Below are positions 12,257-32,000 of a stretch of DNA of 32,000 bases, one piece after another (position 1 is the first letter of the stretch; every line of letters begins with the position of its first letter). A program made the translations under genes and the position numbers. Below the pieces are notes generated by a model. The model was not told the DNA's origin. It ran no database searches and saw only the letters and a program-made list of their open reading frames with translations. The DNA comes from Candidatus Iainarchaeum sp. (GTDB taxonomy: Archaea; Iainarchaeota; Iainarchaeia; Iainarchaeales; JACQJH01), in contig JACQJH010000001.1 in NCBI GenBank assembly GCA_016205145.1, positions 580,964 to 612,963 of the forward strand, given 5' to 3'.

Positions 12257-14290
12257 TCAGGTTACCATTGTGGCCTCTGTTTTCCAGCCCAATTCAACCA
12301 GTTTTTCCACGTTTTTTCTGCCGGTTTCAGTGGAATTGTCGACCCATATTTCTATCTTGTCGCCGCGCGGGCACTGGCACGCCATGCAGACAATTGTTCC
12401 AGGCGGTGCCGGAATGTTTTTGTATGAAACAACCGGAATGCCGTGGACGATTGAATAATATTCCTTTAATATTTCTTCTTCTGTCGGCGCCCTGATGTAA
12501 ACTCTGTTCAGGTCAGCATGCCATTTCTCCCACGGGTTTTCGCCGCATTGGATCGGCGCGTATGTGAGGACGGTTGTCGAAACATTTTTTTCGCCGATCG
12601 TGAATTCATCGCTTTGGGCTGTTGAGCCGTTCCCTTCCCAAATTTTTTCATTGTCATAATAGGTTATTCGCGCCTTGAATGTTCCGGTTGCCATGGTCTG
12701 CACCGGCATGGGTTCGCCGTTGACCCATTCCTTTCCGTCCCATTCTATTTCCCTTGACTGGCCCGGCTTCAGTTCGTCCGCGCTTGGCGCGCATGCCGCC
12801 ATTATCAGGGGATTTGAAATCTGCACCGGCTTCCATTCCCCGTTTTCAAGGCGGATGATTGAAAGCGGCCCGCACAGCACTGTGCCGGGCTGGATGAAAA
12901 CGCTTTTGTCCGAATCATTTGTCGCGGTAATTTTCACGGTTTCGCCCGAGGAATAGCTTTGCCTGTCGGTCTTGGCTTCAACTTTTCCGTTTCCGGGTTG
13001 TTCGCGTATTTTGACCAGCACATACATTTGCCTGATTTCCTTTGTCGGCTTGACGCTGTATTCAGATGGAACCTGTTCGTCGTACCAGCTTTGCGGCAGC
13101 ACGTAACTCAGGCGCTGCCACGTCCCGGCATTTGTCGGATAAAACATGTTCTTGTACCAGGCATTCGCAAAAGCGTTCGCCTCGCTCTTGGTGAAGCCTT
13201 TGCTTGTCAGGTCGTTTTCAAGCAGCTTTGCGTCGGGCGTGAAATCCTTCAGTTCAAGCGCGACAGTTTGCCCGGCATCGATTTTTTCGGCTGTTGCGGC
13301 TTCGACATTCGTTTCCCAGAACCCGCCGCCGTTGCTTGCAACAAATCTTGCATTGTAAACGGCAAAATCGTTGCCGTTGGTGAGGCTTACCGAATTGCCG
13401 TTTCTCTTTGCCTTGACCCTGTTTTCGAATTGCATTTCTCCTTCGTAAAACAAAAATTTGTGCTTTTTCCCGTCGATCCACAGGTCATCCGAATCAACGT
13501 TTCCGAGTTGCGGTTCAATGGATTCGATCGGCGGGCGGTAACCCTTGCTTGTGGCAAGTGCCCTGGATGGTGTTTCCTGTTTCAGTGAAACACTGCTCCA
13601 GCCCGCGGTTTTGCCGTCTGCGGTTCCGCCGGGATAGACGTCCGTGACCTTTCCGCTTGGAAGGGTGTATTTCGCCGAAAATTTGTCAACATTTTTTGCA
13701 TGAAAGTAAACAATTGGAAGTTTTACCATTGCATCCACTTCGGGCCTGCTTGTCAGAATCGCATTTGATTCGTTTTCGTGGGCTTCTATTACGCCCCACT
13801 CGTGAGCCTCGAATTTGTAATCCGTGGGTGGCGGTTCATTGTCTGGAATTTTTCCCGGATATTTTTCGAAAACAACGGGTTTTGCTGTTTTTGGAATCTT
13901 GATTATGTGATATGGCTGCACGAATGCCTGCGTGCACATTGCACCCTCCGAAGGTTCCGGCTTGTCGACAAGCGCGTAAACGTTCGACTGGGTCTGGCGC
14001 ACATCCTTTATTTCAATTGTGTAACAGCCATTCGGTTTCGAACCGAGCGCTGCCGCAATGACAGTGTATTTGTCAAAATCCATTTCAGGCATCTCTGGCT
14101 GCGGCGAAACGTTCTGCTTCAATTCCGACCAAAAACCGGCGAAGGATTTGGCATCATTGAAGACAAGGTTTCTTGCAGCCTGGATTCCGGAATTCTGGCC
14201 TTTTTCAACGGTTTCAAAGCCGACTTTTTCAATGCAGCCTGCCAGAACAAGGATTGAAAGCAGTGCGAGCGCGGCCAGGATTTTTTTCAT
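12257..14290 (-). CDS. large secreted lipoprotein, function unknown (PrcB-like N-terminal region, BsuPI-like Ig region)
   Basis: [19 protein letters not shown] signal peptide with lipobox. ATG 14290 is preceded by GGTGG. The block [13 protein letters not shown] resembles the PrcB C-terminal motif. [18 protein letters not shown]...[13 protein letters not shown] resembles BsuPI-type inhibitor folds. The domain calls are from memory only. Confidence 0.75.
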
Positions 14291-14399
14291 CAAACCACCA
14301 TTTGTTGCATTTTTGCCTATACGCACTATGGCTTTTGGTATTTAAAGGGCTTTTTGTTTGCTTAGGTAAAAGGCTAACGCTGGAATTTGCCTTGGAAAA

Positions 14400-25987: not shown

Positions 25988-27475
<1,488 letters not shown>

Positions 27476-27517
27476 GGGTTTGAAACTTCAATAGAATTGG
27501 TTTGCTTGCATTTTTGG

Positions 27518-27545
27518 CTTGCTGAGCCAAATTGCCTATTTCCCG
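27518..27545 (-). other. 5' arm of the 16S processing stem (bulge-helix-bulge)
   Basis: See 25891-25918. Confidence 0.8.
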
Positions 27546-27844
27546 AGCCTTCCACTCAAACACAAACACGGTTTTTGCAAACCATGAAAGCATCTGGCAG
27601 GCATCATACCCAAAACAACTTGGGTACTCATGGAGACACGCAGCGCATTGCTTTTGCAATGCGCTTATCGCACCGTCCCGCCGAAACGGGACAGGCGTGC
27701 CTTTTGTGAGTTTAAACCAAGAGCGCCAAAAGGCACTCTTGGAATAAAAATCCCTAATTGCCATGCGTCAAATCGGACGTCATTGCATGGCAACAACAAA
27801 AACCGTACCGGTTTTTTTGCCCTATATACATGCACCACCCGCTC

Positions 27845-27910
27845 TTTAAAAACCTATCGGGCGGGCCGGGCTTGTTTAAAAAGTTCCAAGCGCGGGCTTT
27901 TGTTAAAAAA
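27845..27910 (-). promoter_or_regulatory. three TTTAAAAA-type boxes about 30 bp apart (27845-52, 27875-82, 27903-10): candidate tandem rRNA promoters
   Basis: Read on the minus strand, they match the TTTTTAAA boxes seen upstream of leuS, dinB and RNase P RNA. They lie 370-435 nt upstream of the 16S 5' end. Orientation is ambiguous because the box is nearly palindromic. Confidence 0.35.
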
Positions 27911-27953
27911 GCCCATAAATTGCTTTTTATGTTTTTCCGCCATAAATTTTCAA

Positions 27954-28427
27954 ATGACTAATGCGGATAAAGGGTATAATTTAGTCAAAAAACTCGATAA
28001 TGGAAAAATTGCTTGTTATCAATTTGAATTTGAAGGAAAACCTATTGCGGCATATATAGGGGTTACAGTTGCAAGTGAAAACAAAATTGGTGGAGGCGGG
28101 AAAGTGGGCGCAAATCCTCTTGACCCTTCAATAAGTGCCCAAGCTATGAAAGAAAACAAAACAGAATACCAATGGGAAAAATATACGACTTCTGCATTTG
28201 CGGCAACCCACCCAGAAATCAGAAGTAAGGAAGTAAGATTGGAATTAGATAGGAAAGTTACTCAGATTTCAGGAGTTGCTGTAATGAATGCTCCGATTCA
28301 AGAACTCCCGCCTAACCAAGCTATAATTACGCCTTCGGGGGCGCTTTTGTCTACTTCTACAGGAACACTTCAAGCCAATACTGATTTTACCCTTGATAAA
28401 CTAAAAAAACATTTTACTAAATATTGA
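27954..28427 (+). CDS. hypothetical protein (157 aa)
   Basis: ATG 27954 is the first start inside the AT-rich DNA. The upstream 108 codons of the track ORF run through the G+C-rich rRNA leader and look non-coding. No family recognised. Confidence 0.6.
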   Translation: MTNADKGYNLVKKLDNGKIACYQFEFEGKPIAAYIGVTVASENKIGGGGKVGANPLDPSISAQAMKENKTEYQWEKYTTSAFAATHPEIRSKEVRLELDRKVTQISGVAVMNAPIQELPPNQAIITPSGALLSTSTGTLQANTDFTLDKLKKHFTKY

Positions 28428-28446: not shown

Positions 28447-28514
28447 TGCAGGAGACTGCAGGAGGAAGTCTTTTAAAGAGAAACACACACCTATAGTGCA
28501 GGAGAGTGCAGGAG
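28447..28514 (+). promoter_or_regulatory. four direct copies of TGCAGGAG in two pairs flanking a TATA-like box TTTTAAAG (28471-28478)
   Basis: Copies at 28447-54, 28457-64, 28497-504 and 28507-14. Spacing is 10 bp within each pair and 50 bp between pairs. The last copy also supplies an AGGAG ribosome-binding site 4 nt before ATG 28518. Confidence 0.7.
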
Positions 28515-28517
28515 ACA

Positions 28518-29429
28518 ATGTACCCAACTATACCTACTTTAGCCACATTACCAGAAGGCCTTAAACAAGCAGTGGCAGAAAATGACTTGCCATTAGAGGT
28601 AGCACTCCAATTAACCAAATTGAATAACCCGTTTGTAAACGAGAAAATGGTTCAAGTGATAAAAAGAAAAAAGAAATATGAAAGAGACCTTTTGAAAAAT
28701 GCTTTAGCTGCCGTTAAAAAAAGTAGCCAAATGAAAACCAAAATAAATGGATTAAAAAAAATAGTTGATTCAGGAATAACTCTCTCTTCGGTTTGGGATT
28801 TTGGTAACAGAGATAACTATGCAGGCGATGCAAATTTTTATGGAAATGCTCCAACCCAAGTCGTTGAACAGTGTATTCTGAGGCTTACTAAAGAAACTGA
28901 TTTCGTTGTAGACCCTATGGCTGGTTCTGGGACAACAATCGATGTATGTAAGGCATACAACCGAAAAGTCAAAGCGTTTGATTTAACTCCGACCAGAAAA
29001 GAAGTAGTCCAAAATGATAGTAGAAATATCCCTTTGAGAGATTTTTCTACAGATTTAGTTTTTCTTCATCCGCCTTATTGGGATATGGTGAAATACTCTA
29101 TAAAACAAAATGACATATCACGACTTCCTCTAAATAACTTTTTGGATAGTATGACCCAAATCATAAATGAATCTCAAAGAATTTTGAAAAAAGATAAATA
29201 TCTATGTATCTTGATAGGAGATATAGTAAGAAAAGGAAAATTTATTTCACTATCAAGAAAGTTATCAAACATTTGTGAGAACGCAGGATTAGAAGATGCT
29301 GGATACGCAATTAAGATTACAAAAGATTCTACCAGCCAAAGAAGAAGAGGAAAAGCTATATACGCAGAACTTGCGGCAACAAAAAATTTGAAGCAAAATC
29401 ACGATATAATTATGTTTTGGAAAAAATGA
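28518..29429 (+). CDS. SAM-dependent PPY-type amino-methyltransferase (probable DNA N6-A/N4-C methylase) with a ParB-HTH-like N-terminal segment
   Basis: Motif I FVVDPMAGSGTT lies about 52 aa before motif IV LVFLHPPYW, with acidic motif II/III residues between (KAFDL, QNDSRNIPL). The N-terminal LPEGLKQAVAENDLPLEVALQLTKL resembles the helix pair after the ParB HTH. The track start is GTG 28506; ATG 28518 is preferred. Confidence 0.8.
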   Translation: MYPTIPTLATLPEGLKQAVAENDLPLEVALQLTKLNNPFVNEKMVQVIKRKKKYERDLLKNALAAVKKSSQMKTKINGLKKIVDSGITLSSVWDFGNRDNYAGDANFYGNAPTQVVEQCILRLTKETDFVVDPMAGSGTTIDVCKAYNRKVKAFDLTPTRKEVVQNDSRNIPLRDFSTDLVFLHPPYWDMVKYSIKQNDISRLPLNNFLDSMTQIINESQRILKKDKYLCILIGDIVRKGKFISLSRKLSNICENAGLEDAGYAIKITKDSTSQRRRGKAIYAELAATKNLKQNHDIIMFWKK

Positions 29430-30143
29430 TTATTCTTTTGATATTTTTACCAATTCATTTTTTTGTTGTTCGGTTTTACTTTTTTCATATTCTTTTTTTC
29501 CATTCACAAATTCTTGAACTGCATTGTCAGGCAACGGGTGTACCCCTTTCCCATCAATTCGTGCCATTTTTATTTTTCCGCCTACGTCACCATCAATACT
29601 AATTGTTTCAACCATTGTTTTAGCAACTAAAAAACACATTTCATCTACTCCATAATTTTTATCATATTCTTTTGACAGGATATAACGTGCAATGAAGGGT
29701 TTGCCTTCAGCAACTGTATTATCCCCTCTTCCCGAGAAAAACAAATTTTCACTTCTTAAAACATAAATTTTTGGCATAACTTTAGTTTTTATTTTATCTA
29801 ACCCTGCGATAATTATTGTAACGCTTGGAAAACTTTTACTTCGTGGGTTTATAGTATCTGATATATGGGAAATTTCTTTTTTACAAAATCTTTTAAATTC
29901 AGAAACAACATCAGTTACATACCATTTTTTTGTTTTTGAATATTTATATTTAAAATCTTCTATTAACTGCATGGCTATCTCAGGGTCACCTGCAACTAGC
30001 GCACAAGAATAATCAGTCAATTGAATCATTTTTTGCGCAACTAAAGATTCCATTCTCGAACCGTCGTTATCTACCCACGTTCCTTTACTATCCGCAGCGA
30101 GAACTAAATAATCTTTTCCAGATACCGCAATAACAAGTGTCAT
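29430..30143 (-). CDS. stand-alone proteasome-beta/HslV-like Ntn peptidase
   Basis: Begins MTLVIAVSGKDYLVLAADSKGT. This places Thr directly after Met (Thr1) and Asp at mature position 17, with a QKMIQL lysine matching the Lys33 region. Overall length and block order resemble archaeal proteasome beta (my recollection of the Thermoplasma sequence). It has a K/E-rich C-terminal tail. Confidence 0.7.
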   Translation of the reverse strand: MTLVIAVSGKDYLVLAADSKGTWVDNDGSRMESLVAQKMIQLTDYSCALVAGDPEIAMQLIEDFKYKYSKTKKWYVTDVVSEFKRFCKKEISHISDTINPRSKSFPSVTIIIAGLDKIKTKVMPKIYVLRSENLFFSGRGDNTVAEGKPFIARYILSKEYDKNYGVDEMCFLVAKTMVETISIDGDVGGKIKMARIDGKGVHPLPDNAVQEFVNGKKEYEKSKTEQQKNELVKISKE

Positions 30144-30147
30144 ACTT

Positions 30148-30711
30148 TCACGTTTCCTTATTTACTCTTTGTGTCACAAGACTTGTTACAATTTGATTAA
30201 TAGTTTTATTTTGCTTTTTTGCTATTTTTTTTAATTTTTCAAATTGCTCATTTTCTAAGGAAACAACAACTAAGTTTAATGTGGCTTTTAGCTCCTTTGA
30301 CTTTTTTAATCGATTAATTTGATTTTCTATTGAGACCCCGCGATTATTTTTTGCAAACCTTATCATATCCCTTGCATCGTGTGCACTAAGCCCAACTATT
30401 GAGTTAGCAATTCTTATTTGGTCTTCTTTGTTTTTGATTGCTAACAGCCTCCAACCCAAGTCTTGAGTAATTTTATTTTCTTTTATTAATTGCTTTATCT
30501 CTGATGGCAAATCTAAAAGTTTTATAGTAGAACGAACCATTTCTCTGGACAATGAAAGCAACTTTGCAACTTTTCCATCAGACTTATATTTATCTTTAAG
30601 CTCCTTGAATTTTTCGGCTAAAAATATCCAGTCGTGGGTTTGTTTTCCTTTTGCCTTAAAATTAGAATATATGATGGCAAATATTTCATCTTCATCAACT
30701 TTTTTAGTCAT
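30148..30711 (-). CDS. ParB-HTH-only protein with a C-terminal ribbon-helix-helix-like segment
   Basis: KVAKLLSLSREMVRSTIKLLDLPSEIKQLIKENKITQDLGWRLLAI is a ParB HTH-domain pattern, and no ParB/Srx N-domain is present. The C-terminus LNLVVVSLENEQFEKLKKIAKKQNKTINQIVTSLV fits a beta-alpha-alpha (RHH) pattern. There is an ATGA overlap with the upstream gene. Confidence 0.7.
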   Translation of the reverse strand: MTKKVDEDEIFAIIYSNFKAKGKQTHDWIFLAEKFKELKDKYKSDGKVAKLLSLSREMVRSTIKLLDLPSEIKQLIKENKITQDLGWRLLAIKNKEDQIRIANSIVGLSAHDARDMIRFAKNNRGVSIENQINRLKKSKELKATLNLVVVSLENEQFEKLKKIAKKQNKTINQIVTSLVTQRVNKET

Positions 30712-31541
30712 TCTTCTTGTCCCCTAACGTAACCCTTGATTATTTCGGTGAGAAGGTCTTCTATGCCAATTTTATTTTTACTATTGTTTGCAATTCCTTG
30801 AATTTTATCGAAGTCAGACCTATCAACTAAAACAGTGAGTTTAATTTTTCTGGAAGGTTTTTTTGCCTCGGCTAATATTTCTTCAATAGATGCATCTTTA
30901 TTTTCCATACCCACATCTAGTATATTATCCCATTCTGGTTTTGTCATTCCTATCATATGTCTTGCAATTTTCACGATTTTTTCCGATTTTGGCCAAAAAG
31001 CAGTAGTTAATTTATAGGCTTGTTTCGGGTCAAGTTTTTTTTCAGCTACCATGTCTCTTACTTCTTTTGGTATGATTCGGTAAGAGAGATATTTAGTAAC
31101 TGTTTGAAGAGATAAACCAACATCCGCAGCTACTTGTTCTAATCTCTTTGATTGCGTCCCCGTATACTTACTAAATAATTCATCACATACTCTAATAGTG
31201 TCATTATACGGCAGTTTTGTTCTATTGACATTTTCAGAGAATGAAATAATTCTTTTTGTTAACTCATTAACATTATTGATTAATATTGCTGGAATTTCTT
31301 CTCGTTTTAATTCTTCGAATGCCCTAAATCTTCTTTGCCCTACAAGAACTTTGAATTTTTTATTTCCTTTTCCTTCGGTTAAAAGTATGGGGTGGATAAG
31401 TCCGACATTTTCTATACTCGCTTTTAGCACATCTAGATTATTTTTTCTACCTTCAGTTCTAACATTTAAAGTGTCAACTTCAATATCGTTAATGTTTGCT
31501 TCAAAATATTTTCTATCTTTTATATAGTCAAGTGTAGCCAT
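30708..31541 (-). CDS. ParB/Srx-domain protein with HTH and a C-terminal ribbon-helix-helix-like segment
   Basis: The ParB N-domain shows the arginine patch VLVGQRRFRAFEEL (GxRRxRA type) and IHPILL. The HTH is QVAADVGLSLQTVTKYLSYRIIPKEVRDMVAEKKL. The C-terminus is KLTVLVDRSDFDKIQGIANNSKNKIGIEDLLTEIIKGYV. ATG 31541 is preceded by AGGTGA. The track start at 31568 is less likely. Confidence 0.8.
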   Translation of the reverse strand: MATLDYIKDRKYFEANINDIEVDTLNVRTEGRKNNLDVLKASIENVGLIHPILLTEGKGNKKFKVLVGQRRFRAFEELKREEIPAILINNVNELTKRIISFSENVNRTKLPYNDTIRVCDELFSKYTGTQSKRLEQVAADVGLSLQTVTKYLSYRIIPKEVRDMVAEKKLDPKQAYKLTTAFWPKSEKIVKIARHMIGMTKPEWDNILDVGMENKDASIEEILAEAKKPSRKIKLTVLVDRSDFDKIQGIANNSKNKIGIEDLLTEIIKGYVRGQEE

Positions 31542-31549
31542 ATAGTCAC

Positions 31550-31846
31550 CTAGTGGGTGGCATTCCAATTATCTCGTAAATTTTTCCATTCTTCAATAGT
31601 TATTTCTTTTCTGCCTAATTTACTATTTATCTCAGAAATAAAATCGCCATAGTCTTTAACTTTTTTATCTTTTTGTTCAGCCTTTTCCACTTCCGAACTT
31701 AACTGTTCAATATCTTTGATGTCGTGATTTATCGAAAAGTGTTTCAGGATATCCTTAAATTCGCATTTACAAATTGGGCAAAAATTATTTGTCAATCTAC
31801 CACCTTGTTTTTTGTCTTTTTGAAACCCCTTTGACTTAAAGCCCAC
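31550..31846 (-). CDS. small C2H2-type zinc-finger protein
   Basis: CPICKCEFKDILKHFSINH gives the pattern C-x2-C-x9-H-x4-H. The maximal ORF starts at GTG 31846. The more likely start is TTG 31795, which overlaps the TGA stop of the upstream 50-aa ORF (TTGA) and follows AAGGTGG. Confidence 0.6.
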   Translation of the reverse strand: MGFKSKGFQKDKKQGGRLTNNFCPICKCEFKDILKHFSINHDIKDIEQLSSEVEKAEQKDKKVKDYGDFISEINSKLGRKEITIEEWKNLRDNWNATH

Positions 31847-31944
31847 TTAAAAAGCTTGGTTGGGCTTATTTGATTATTTTCAAGAAACTTCTTTTCATCG
31901 TTAGTTAAGGAAACGGAAACCCATTTAATTCCAGAATTAGCCAT
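31792..31944 (-). CDS. 50-aa ribbon-helix-helix-like protein (below the ORF-track size cut-off)
   Basis: Hand translation gives MANSGIKWVSVSLTNDEKKFLENNQISPTKLFKWALSQRGFKKTKNKVVD. The beta strand (KWVSVSL) followed by two helices fits an RHH pattern. It is the first gene of the operon and sits downstream of an AT-rich, TATA-rich region (31945-32000). Confidence 0.5.
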   Translation of the reverse strand: MANSGIKWVSVSLTNDEKKFLENNQISPTKLFKWALSQRGFKKTKNKVVD

Positions 31945-32000
31945 ATATGCCAAATTATATAAGTTATACAATAACTTTAAAAGCTTATTATATTATATAA

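Follow-up and report, generated by a model that had tools for sequence, protein, structure and literature searches.

What does a proteasome-type peptidase do as the last gene of an operon for ParB-like proteins, with neither an alpha subunit nor an unfoldase encoded beside it? This question is raised by a 32,000-nucleotide stretch of DNA from Candidatus Iainarchaeum sp. (contig JACQJH010000001.1, positions 580,964 to 612,963 of the forward strand), the whole of which we refer to as the window. The gene concerned, located at 29430..30143 on the minus strand, encodes a protein of 237 aa that is annotated in the database as 'hypothetical' (MBI4052999.1) and that a sequence-only reading had taken for a proteasome-beta-like protein encoded on foreign DNA. 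A match to PF00227, an AlphaFold2 (AF2) model, Foldseek comparisons and residue conservation identify it as a proteasome-beta-like N-terminal-threonine peptidase, hereafter PSL. The ParB operon to which its gene belongs is a near-obligate conserved multi-gene module that is found across archaeal phyla, and is thus more than a local curiosity. The analysis presented below supports both the observation and the interpretation of the sequence-only reading.

The PSL open reading frame (ORF) has an ATG start and 237 codons, and its product has the N-terminus MTLVIAVSGKDYLVLAADSKG. The protein matched the Pfam Proteasome profile PF00227 with an E-value of 2.7e-10 and a score of 40.6 bits (cutoff 22.4), and the alignment of PSL residues 4-195 spans profile positions 7-188 of 189. 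This match is far past chance. TIGR03634, the equivalog model of the archaeal beta subunit, scored 26 bits (cutoff 224); it was the sole match in an NCBIfam scan at E <= 0.1, and no HslV model was found in that scan. Because the PF00227 cutoff is passed and that of TIGR03634 is far off, PSL belongs to the proteasome family yet is not a canonical beta subunit. Scans of PHROGs and PADLOC produced no match for PSL.

The AF2 model of PSL, built on 20 homologs, had a predicted local distance difference test score (pLDDT) of 88.4 and a predicted template modelling score (pTM) of 0.83. It shows a beta-sandwich between helix pairs, i.e. the alpha-beta-beta-alpha fold of N-terminal nucleophile (Ntn) hydrolases, plus a long C-terminal helix (residues 216-236), which corresponds to the Lys/Glu-rich C-terminal tail seen in the sequence-only reading. 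When the model was compared with the PDB by Foldseek, all top 50 matches were 20S proteasome subunits, with E-values down to 1.9e-13; the beta subunit of T. acidophilum superimposed with a target-normalised template modelling score of 0.84 and a root mean square deviation of 2.5 Å. In agreement with this, the PSL family profile retrieved from the PDB the M. jannaschii beta subunit (1.2e-12), followed by eukaryotic beta1/beta6 and other 20S subunits. HslV, Anbu and BPH chains were present neither among the top 60 PDB sequence matches nor among the top 50 Foldseek matches. The hidden Markov model (HMM) of the PSL family matched T. acidophilum beta over its full length with 53 bits and E. coli HslV with 22 bits over the N-terminal half only, both reference sequences having been entered by hand for this comparison. 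Thus, structure prediction and profile search, which had been suggested along with the sequence-only reading, revealed no different fold, and the proteasome-beta-like identity is borne out by a PF00227 score above cutoff together with a confident 20S-beta-like fold.

The active-site positions were assigned by sequence-based alignments, which equate T2 with Thr1, D18 with Asp17, K38 with Lys33, G52 with Gly47 and D184 with Asp166. On the minus strand, the corresponding codons are located at 30138-30140 (T2), 30090-30092 (D18), 30030-30032 (K38), 29988-29990 (G52) and 29592-29594 (D184). Among 55 diverse family members, T2, D18, K38, G114 and G147 do not vary. The three catalytic residues are also invariant in 36 distinct relatives derived from the related loci (T2 36/36, D18 36/36); the locus sets used here and below are samples of genome and metagenome scans, made with alignments A1 and A4, and not a census. 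G52 and D184 are kept in at least 90% of the family members. These results agree with the sequence-only reading on several points. The Met-Thr start that it had noted is present as M1-T2, and the residue that it had proposed as Asp17, in LVLAADSKG, is D18 in LAADSKG. The lysine that it had considered Lys33-like, although shifted by about 4 residues, is K38 in AQKMIQL, which falls on Lys33 in alignments with the beta subunits of M. jannaschii and T. acidophilum and is preceded in PSL by a 4-residue insertion. Finally, its GxGxxF-like block, AEGKPFIARYIL, aligns to the beta-subunit block TGSGSPFVYGVL and contains the invariant G147.

Almost all PSL relatives have the N-terminus MT(L/V). Relative to the stop codon of the preceding gene, which encodes a ParB-like protein described below (HTH_ParB), the conserved ATG-ACN is located at -4 to +18 nt in 33 of 36 distinct genes, and 14 of these 33 genes overlap that stop codon as ATGA; a GGAG-like ribosome-binding site is present upstream of the PSL-family start. 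Since the upstream stop codon and the ribosome-binding site fix the start, Met-Thr is the real start and the longer N-termini in a few database entries are mis-calls. The sequence-only reading was therefore right that PSL lacks a propeptide. Methionine aminopeptidase strips Met ahead of Thr, and Met removal would expose Thr1 of PSL directly. This maturation had been described as 'HslV/Anbu/BPH-style', a label that applies to the maturation mode only, because PSL is nearest in profile and fold to archaeal and eukaryotic 20S beta subunits and not to HslV, Anbu or BPH. Nor is the lack of a propeptide unusual by itself, since it is the rule among the orphan proteasome homologs surveyed by Fuchs, Alva and Lupas in 2021 (PMC8665760). 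The most divergent ParB-linked clade (L046:2018-2656, L047:4177-4863 and L048:5977-6624; L numbers designate related loci) has DPRIG where others have DGDVGG, and its N-termini read MELTEG|TLVI or MTVELTHG|TLVI, i.e. a short propeptide ending in Gly-Thr as in canonical archaeal beta subunits. This suggests that the family descended from a propeptide-bearing beta subunit and lost the propeptide later, and the L046-L048 proteins may represent an evolutionary intermediate between propeptide-bearing and propeptide-less beta subunits.

In the window PSL is the last gene of a co-directional operon that also encodes, in this order, a small protein, a ParB protein with a ParB_N domain, and HTH_ParB. 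The ParB_N and HTH_ParB genes share 4 nt, and the gap between HTH_ParB and PSL is likewise 4 nt long; this gene order and spacing confirm the place at the end of a ParB-type operon that the sequence-only reading had given to PSL. Its remark that no alpha-subunit or AAA+ gene is adjacent could be extended, as no gene for an alpha subunit or an AAA+ protein (PAN/Cdc48 unfoldase) was found in the 32-kb window or within ~10 kb of the related loci.

Relatives of PSL were collected in two ways. A word-indexed search produced 20 sequences with 35-56% identity, the few named hosts of which are metagenome-assembled genomes (MAGs) of DPANN archaea (Aenigmatarchaeota and Nanoarchaeota). A HMMER search of 1.84 billion cluster representatives gave 143 relatives at E <= 1e-3. 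In addition, 68 profile matches all came from metagenomes or MAGs, with 0 RefSeq proteins among them. The relatives constitute a single BLAST-connected family with two flavours. Group 1 includes PSL, and all of its identified hosts are archaeal: Diapherotrites, Micrarchaeota, Aenigmatarchaeota, Nanoarchaeota, Bathyarchaeota and Nitrosotalea. Group 2, characterized by 'GDPRG...DGKVGG', is bacterial (Rokubacteria, Actinomycetota and others), has more than 870 members and also starts with Met-Thr.

In group 1, the order and orientation of the core genes are constant in every informative locus: a small ORF of 80-100 aa, ParB_N of ~270-285 aa, HTH_ParB of ~180-200 aa, and PSL. HTH_ParB is directly followed by PSL, and preceded by ParB_N, in 51 of the 52 fetched loci having upstream DNA (~44/45 after removal of redundancy). 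The sole exception (L043:6001-6366) is a decayed copy, in which a truncated PSL remnant lies by a PAPS-reductase gene (PAPS, 3'-phosphoadenosine-5'-phosphosulfate) and ParB genes are missing. The linkage spans DPANN archaea, Bathyarchaeota and Nitrosotalea, and thereby at least six named archaeal lineages. A gene for a DNA methyltransferase (MTase) or a PAPS_reduct protein adjoins the core in nearly all loci that are sufficiently long. The identity matrices of PSL, HTH_ParB and ParB_N correlate with r = 0.83-0.86 over 30 loci, which indicates that the three core proteins evolve together, the modifying enzyme beside them being swapped. The group 2 loci (L054-L058, from Rokubacteria and Actinomycetota) have no ParB neighbour genes, and the linkage is therefore specific to the archaeal clade. 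In these bacterial loci the peptidase gene is always followed by an ORF of 65-71 aa, and the surroundings (integrase, helix-turn-helix (HTH) protein, small terminase, AAA_25) resemble a prophage or mobile element. Group 2 may be one of the clusters of Fuchs et al. 2021.

The two ParB-like proteins differ in their domains. The larger one (30708..31568, minus strand) contains ParB_N plus an HTH domain (PF02195, E 9.6e-13; TIGR00180 parB_part, 71.9 bits, cutoff 58.45) and is of the Noc/ParB CTPase-clamp type; its start is probably the ATG at 31541, which would result in a protein of 277 aa. Its best relatives in the PDB are the CTPase clamps Noc and chromosomal ParB/Spo0J, its GQRRFRA aligning with their GERRWRA. 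The motifs of the CTP pocket are N35-x-R37, G77-Q-R-R-x-x-A83 and E112-N113-x-x-R116. Among 34 homologs, G77, R79, R80, A83, E112 and N113 are present in 34/34, R37 and R116 are nearly invariant, and boxes I-III of the pocket are kept in 31-34 sequences. As far as these motifs indicate, the CTP pocket is intact. In one locus (L036:2256-3092) a further ParB_N gene lies downstream of that for the peptidase. The smaller protein, HTH_ParB (187 aa; 30148..30711, minus strand; PF17762, E 2.2e-11), is without the N-terminal CTPase domain of ParB and has a C-terminal segment that resembles a ribbon-helix-helix (RHH) domain (RHH_4, 21.8 bits, cutoff 25).

The operon starts with the gene of a 98-aa protein (31550..31846, minus strand) that has a C-x2-C...H-x4-H (C2H2-like) zinc-finger signature. 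C23, C26, H36 and H41 are kept in 22-23 of 23 sequences, homologs are present in most of the related loci, and its Pfam matches are weak only (zf-Di19, E 0.028). A 59-aa ORF on its upstream side (31792-31971, minus strand) overlaps this gene by ~55 nt; judged by eye it is RHH-like (VSVSLTNDEKKFLENN...SPTKLFKWAL), and it may be spurious.

Convergent with PSL and with zero spacer lies the gene of an N6/N4 DNA MTase (28506..29429, plus strand; PF01555, E 8e-20; PADLOC MTase_II models, up to E 5e-25), the start of which is probably the ATG at 28518 and not the GTG at 28506. The same convergent layout is found in L001-L005, L010 and L031 (DPANN clade). Other loci (L006-L009, L012-L028 and others) contain instead a gene for a PAPS-reductase-like PP-loop enzyme, which either opens the operon or lies downstream in convergent orientation; these proteins are closest to the uncharacterised archaeal PRK13795/PRK08557 and are far under the cutoffs for DndC and CysH. 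In the phage ParB-MTase family phrog_498, the N-terminal part is matched by ParB_N and the C-terminal part by the MTase. The cassette loci have no conserved restriction endonuclease, and the cassette is therefore not a classical restriction-modification (R-M) system. Upstream of the MTase gene, four copies of TGCAGGAG (28447..28514, plus strand; starts at 28447, 28457, 28497 and 28507) surround GGAAGTCTTTTAAAG, a box that resembles a B recognition element/TATA box (~28454-28468). Elsewhere in the 32 kb only one more forward copy and one reverse copy of TGCAGGAG are present, and the first pair plus a TTTTAA(A/G) box is also found upstream of the MTase gene in L002, L003 and L010. The repeats and the box probably constitute an operator/promoter of the MTase gene. 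Apart from these direct repeats, a repeat scan of the island for parS-like palindromes gave AT-rich low-complexity pairs only. The N-terminus of the MTase (28506-28660, LATLPEGLKQAVAENDLPLEVALQL) resembles the end of the ParB HTH domain, and the C-termini of the two ParB paralogs are similar, with an apparent beta-strand and two helices (RHH-like), the weak match to RHH_4 being seen only in HTH_ParB. These resemblances hint that the MTase and the two ParB paralogs share pieces for DNA binding or dimerisation.

The guanine plus cytosine (GC) content of the window drops from ~51% to ~31% near position 27,900 (the drop begins at ~27,850-27,950) and stays low through the window end, which supports the assignment of this region to foreign DNA in the sequence-only reading. 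The first 27 kb are ordinary archaeal chromosome, with genes for arginine biosynthesis, ArgRS, LeuRS and AlaRS, the RNase P RNA, and the 16S-tRNA(Ala)-23S operon. Between the LeuRS and AlaRS genes, this part also encodes an otherwise unannotated 689-aa protein with a PrcB_C domain (12257-14326, minus strand; E 1.1e-11), which despite its name has no relation to the proteasome. The left margin of this low-GC island is occupied by a gene for a hypothetical protein of 157 aa (27954..28427, plus strand) without a Pfam match, which is not counted here as part of the conserved module. High GC persists for ~400 nt upstream of the 16S 5' end (27475-27950) before dropping abruptly, and hence the island abuts the rRNA promoter region. 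Neither a tRNA nor an obvious att repeat was seen at the island junction. A chimeric assembly at the rRNA operon would also produce a GC jump. This is unlikely, since high GC extends ~400 nt beyond the 16S 5' end, since a 1.3-kb Logan contig, assembled independently from reads, reproduces PSL together with parts of both neighbours, and since in other genomes, too, the cassette is richer in AT than its flanks (L001, L002, L003, L010 and L024). Several of the related loci have DDE transposases, type I and type II R-M genes, an AbiV-type HEPN protein or a uracil-DNA glycosylase as neighbours, and L059 has a tyrosine integrase, a STAND NTPase and HD and CYTH proteins.

How can these observations be combined? 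We give about an even chance to the explanation that PSL is an active threonine peptidase which serves as the dedicated subunit of a mobile archaeal ParB/DNA-modification module, and that it is not a general degradation machine of the 20S type. This explanation builds on the family and fold of PSL, its conserved catalytic positions and Met-Thr start, its linkage to and co-variation with the ParB proteins, the swap of the modifying enzyme, the restriction of the linked clade to archaea and the island-like composition of the locus. PSL would derive from the archaeal proteasome beta lineage and mature by removal of the initiator Met. The proposed module would consist of the C2H2-like zinc-finger protein, the ParB/Noc-type protein, the truncated ParB paralog, the peptidase and an interchangeable DNA-modifying enzyme. 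Within it, the ParB_N protein may act as a DNA clamp or in DNA loading, and the truncated paralog, with its HTH and RHH parts, could be a site-specific DNA binder or repressor. Together, the ParB pair would target the module to DNA and direct or control the modifying enzyme, by analogy to the ParB-like partners of DNA-modifying enzymes in other systems: DpdB acts with DpdA (PMC12839542), DndB plays such a part in the Dnd system (PMC10853773), and phage T-dioxygenases depend on ParB (PMC13229309). Archaeal viruses, in turn, carry ParB/Noc-type CTPases, methylases and IbrAB-like genes (PMC8813620). PSL itself would probably form a beta-only oligomer without an unfoldase, and for lack of an unfoldase probably acts on flexible segments. 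It might cut such segments in the DNA-binding proteins of the module, or in proteins recruited by them, and so process or turn over the DNA-bound complex.

Several points weigh against this explanation. In canonical beta subunits Ser129 and Ser169 orient Thr1. The equivalent of Ser129 in PSL is K148, a position that varies in relatives (K, A, R or V), and that of Ser169 is V187, a conserved valine. The earlier picture of the active site is to be corrected accordingly: going by the alignments, the two serines of canonical beta subunits are not kept and the Asp166 equivalent D184 is, so that the triad and the oxyanion glycine are strongly constrained and the serine network that orients Thr1 is not retained. 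Because these serine equivalents are replaced, we infer the catalytic competence of PSL from the conserved triad only. The co-variation of the core proteins is expected in any co-inherited gene cluster and is no proof of a complex; the substrate, the oligomeric state and the physical contacts of PSL are likewise proposed by inference. As to mobility, this is not evident everywhere, some copies being located amid housekeeping genes (L001), and relatives of PSL and ParB_N were absent from IMG/VR, GenBank phages and PLSDB plasmids in alignment scans and tblastn searches.

Two alternatives would separate PSL from ParB-directed proteolysis altogether. It might be a stand-alone housekeeping protease, forming a complex like those of HslV, BPH or Anbu or substituting for 20S beta, that lies beside ParB genes by chance. 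PSL does belong to the same superfamily, is propeptide-less like Anbu and BPH, and has no dedicated partner of a known kind. However, the linkage to ParB in 51/52 loci from at least six named archaeal lineages, the 26 bits against 224 for TIGR03634, the lack of an HslV model at E <= 0.1, the compositionally foreign cassette and the translational coupling with HTH_ParB all argue against such a role, to which we give hardly any credence; on the linkage statistics, chance neighbourhood or a general housekeeping function is effectively excluded. Scarcely more probable is a non-proteolytic function, in which PSL would be an Ntn amidohydrolase or amidotransferase whose Thr1 cooperates with the PP-loop enzyme to add or remove an amide in a pathway of DNA modification. 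Asparagine synthetase B provides the analogy, as it pairs an Ntn glutaminase domain with a PP-loop synthetase domain, and most loci do pair PSL with a PAPS-reductase-like PP-loop enzyme; the positions of Ser129 and Ser169, moreover, are unlike those of proteolytic beta subunits. Yet PSL is equally conserved where an MTase replaces the PP-loop enzyme, as it does in this window, its linkage to the ParB proteins is tighter than that to the modifying enzyme, and both its Thr/Asp/Lys triad and its fold are those of peptide-hydrolysing proteasome subunits.

The two other alternatives retain the module and assign another purpose to it. In a defence system, the MTase or PP-loop enzyme would mark self DNA, the ParB clamp and the HTH and zinc-finger proteins would sense invading DNA that lacks the mark, and the peptidase, activated thereby, would be the effector that breaks down proteins of the host or the virus in a response resembling abortive infection. 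The layout is like that of modification, sensor and effector, with an interchangeable modification enzyme; the composition is island-like; several loci lie by R-M systems, HEPN/AbiV, an integrase or a STAND NTPase; and proteins of the ParB superfamily recur in defence systems (PMC3632139; PMC12839542). PADLOC, however, is silent on the peptidase and HTH_ParB and gives for ParB_N only a weak partial match to the MTase_II model. In addition, ParB_N is like the Noc/ParB clamps and unlike the defence ParBs of the DUF262/GmrS type, no nuclease or classical effector is conserved, and some loci have housekeeping surroundings. We judge the defence reading rather unlikely. Alternatively, the module might serve the establishment of a mobile element or anti-restriction: ParB plus the MTase or PAPS reductase would protect or mark the DNA of the element, and the peptidase would remove restriction or repressor proteins of the host or process proteins of the element. 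The match of ParB_N and the MTase to the two ends of phrog_498 fits this, with phage ParB-MTase fusions and IbrAB-like pairs as models, as do the ParB/Noc CTPases, methylases and IbrAB-like genes of archaeal viruses (PMC8813620), the transposases and integrases next to some loci, and a GC content below that of the host. We consider it distinctly improbable, though, given that relatives of the peptidase and ParB_N were not found in IMG/VR, GenBank phages or PLSDB and that the cassette has no conserved neighbour genes for replication, a capsid or conjugation.

Returning to PSL as the dedicated peptidase of a ParB/DNA-modification module, a more far-reaching form of this explanation can be formulated. 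An unfoldase-independent protease of the proteasome type would then be the proteolytic arm of a CTP-dependent ParB clamp machine. With an interchangeable DNA-marking enzyme as its partner, it would constitute an archaeal system of immunity or mobile-element control that has so far gone unrecognised, and in which the state of the DNA is read by ParB and converted into targeted proteolysis. We put this forward as a tentative proposal, with the chances rather against it. If true, a proteolytic arm of a ParB clamp would give an orphan proteasome homolog its first cellular role and set of partners, and would add a new output to the ParB-CTPase switches. The partnership with an intact-looking CTP pocket and a DNA-modifying enzyme provides concrete and directly testable hypotheses on the function of such a homolog, concerning which partner is cleaved, whether proteolysis depends on DNA or CTP, and whether the outcome is protection against viruses or stabilisation of the element. 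It joins two active fields, those of ParB CTPase switches and self-compartmentalising proteases, and, for DPANN and TACK archaea, adds to a sparse list of candidate systems of defence or of mobile elements. Moreover, the transition from propeptide-bearing to propeptide-less beta subunits would be captured inside one gene family.

Among the known systems, the archaeal 20S beta subunit (PsmB; M. jannaschii 3H4P, T. acidophilum 1PMA) is the best relative of PSL in sequence and structure. Both have the same fold, PSL possesses equivalents of Thr1, Asp17, Lys33, Gly47 and Asp166 and an H5-like C-terminal helix, and the divergent ParB-linked L046-L048 proteins keep the short Gly-Thr propeptide. PSL differs from archaeal beta subunits in its TIGR03634 score (26 vs 224 bits), in the propeptide-less N-terminus of its main clade, in the replacement of Ser129 and Ser169, in the insertion of 4 residues before Lys33, and in its genomic setting, i.e. 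an AT-rich island cassette of ParB and DNA-modification genes with no alpha or PAN/AAA+ gene nearby.

HslV, Anbu and BPH share with PSL the exposure of Thr1 by Met removal. They are bacterial, whereas the identified hosts of PSL group 1 are all archaeal. HslV is far less similar to PSL than is archaeal beta (22 vs 53 bits), and no hslU/AAA+ gene is adjacent to PSL. The Anbu operon contains genes for ATP-grasp, alpha-E and transglutaminase-like proteins. Anbu and BPH (5LOX, 5OVS) are not among the folds closest to PSL, next to which this ATP-grasp/transglutaminase operon is absent and the neighbours are ParB and DNA-modification genes. HslV, Anbu and BPH form beta-only complexes, and BPH and Anbu are without a known unfoldase (PMC5777263, PMC5666114).

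With ParABS systems the cassette has the CTP motifs of ParB in common, but no ParA is conserved; the only ParA-like gene near the cassette, CbiA/ParA-like, is located ~2 kb away in L003. Another parallel is offered by ImmR/ImmA of ICEBs1, a repressor that forms a switch with its cognate metalloprotease on a mobile element. In the cassette, too, an HTH/RHH DNA binder is co-translated with a dedicated protease encoded next to it, on DNA that is probably mobile. The comparison is no more than an analogy, and so is a cleavage of HTH_ParB that it might suggest; the ImmA metalloprotease and the Ntn threonine peptidase PSL differ in fold. Closer are the ParB-assisted DNA-modification modules, such as the phrog_498 fusions, IbrA/IbrB, DndB-DndC, DpdA-DpdB and the phage T-dioxygenases, in which a protein of the ParB superfamily is combined with an MTase or a PP-loop enzyme of the PAPS-reductase type, typically on mobile DNA. 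In the cassette, too, a ParB-superfamily gene adjoins an MTase or PAPS-reductase-type gene. A proteasome-family peptidase is not reported for those modules, and the cassette further adds two ParB paralogs and a zinc-finger protein.

PSL resembles the orphan proteasome homologs in being propeptide-less, in its conserved triad and Gly47, in having no AAA+ partner and in its patchy distribution, and some of these homologs have a C-terminal coiled-coil helix, comparable to the C-terminal helix of PSL. Judging from their locus tags, the named NCBI members of the PSL family are presumably later than the August 2020 nr that was used in the survey of these homologs. That survey lists 22 such homologs, of which ACC, WPH and PHI (representatives WP_161937350.1, WP_040339656.1 and WP_012956871.1) are archaeal, finds propeptides to be absent outside beta subunits and HslV, and describes no genomic context hinting at function in any subfamily (PMC8665760). 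PSL, which was compared with ACC, WPH and PHI by description only, is unlike these homologs in having a near-obligate genomic context. A literature search on proteasome or Ntn proteins with ParB, PAPS reductase, DNA modification or defence yielded no account of such a linkage, and membership in a near-obligate ParB/DNA-modification cassette appears to be undescribed so far. It is the first consistent functional context for an orphan proteasome relative of this kind.

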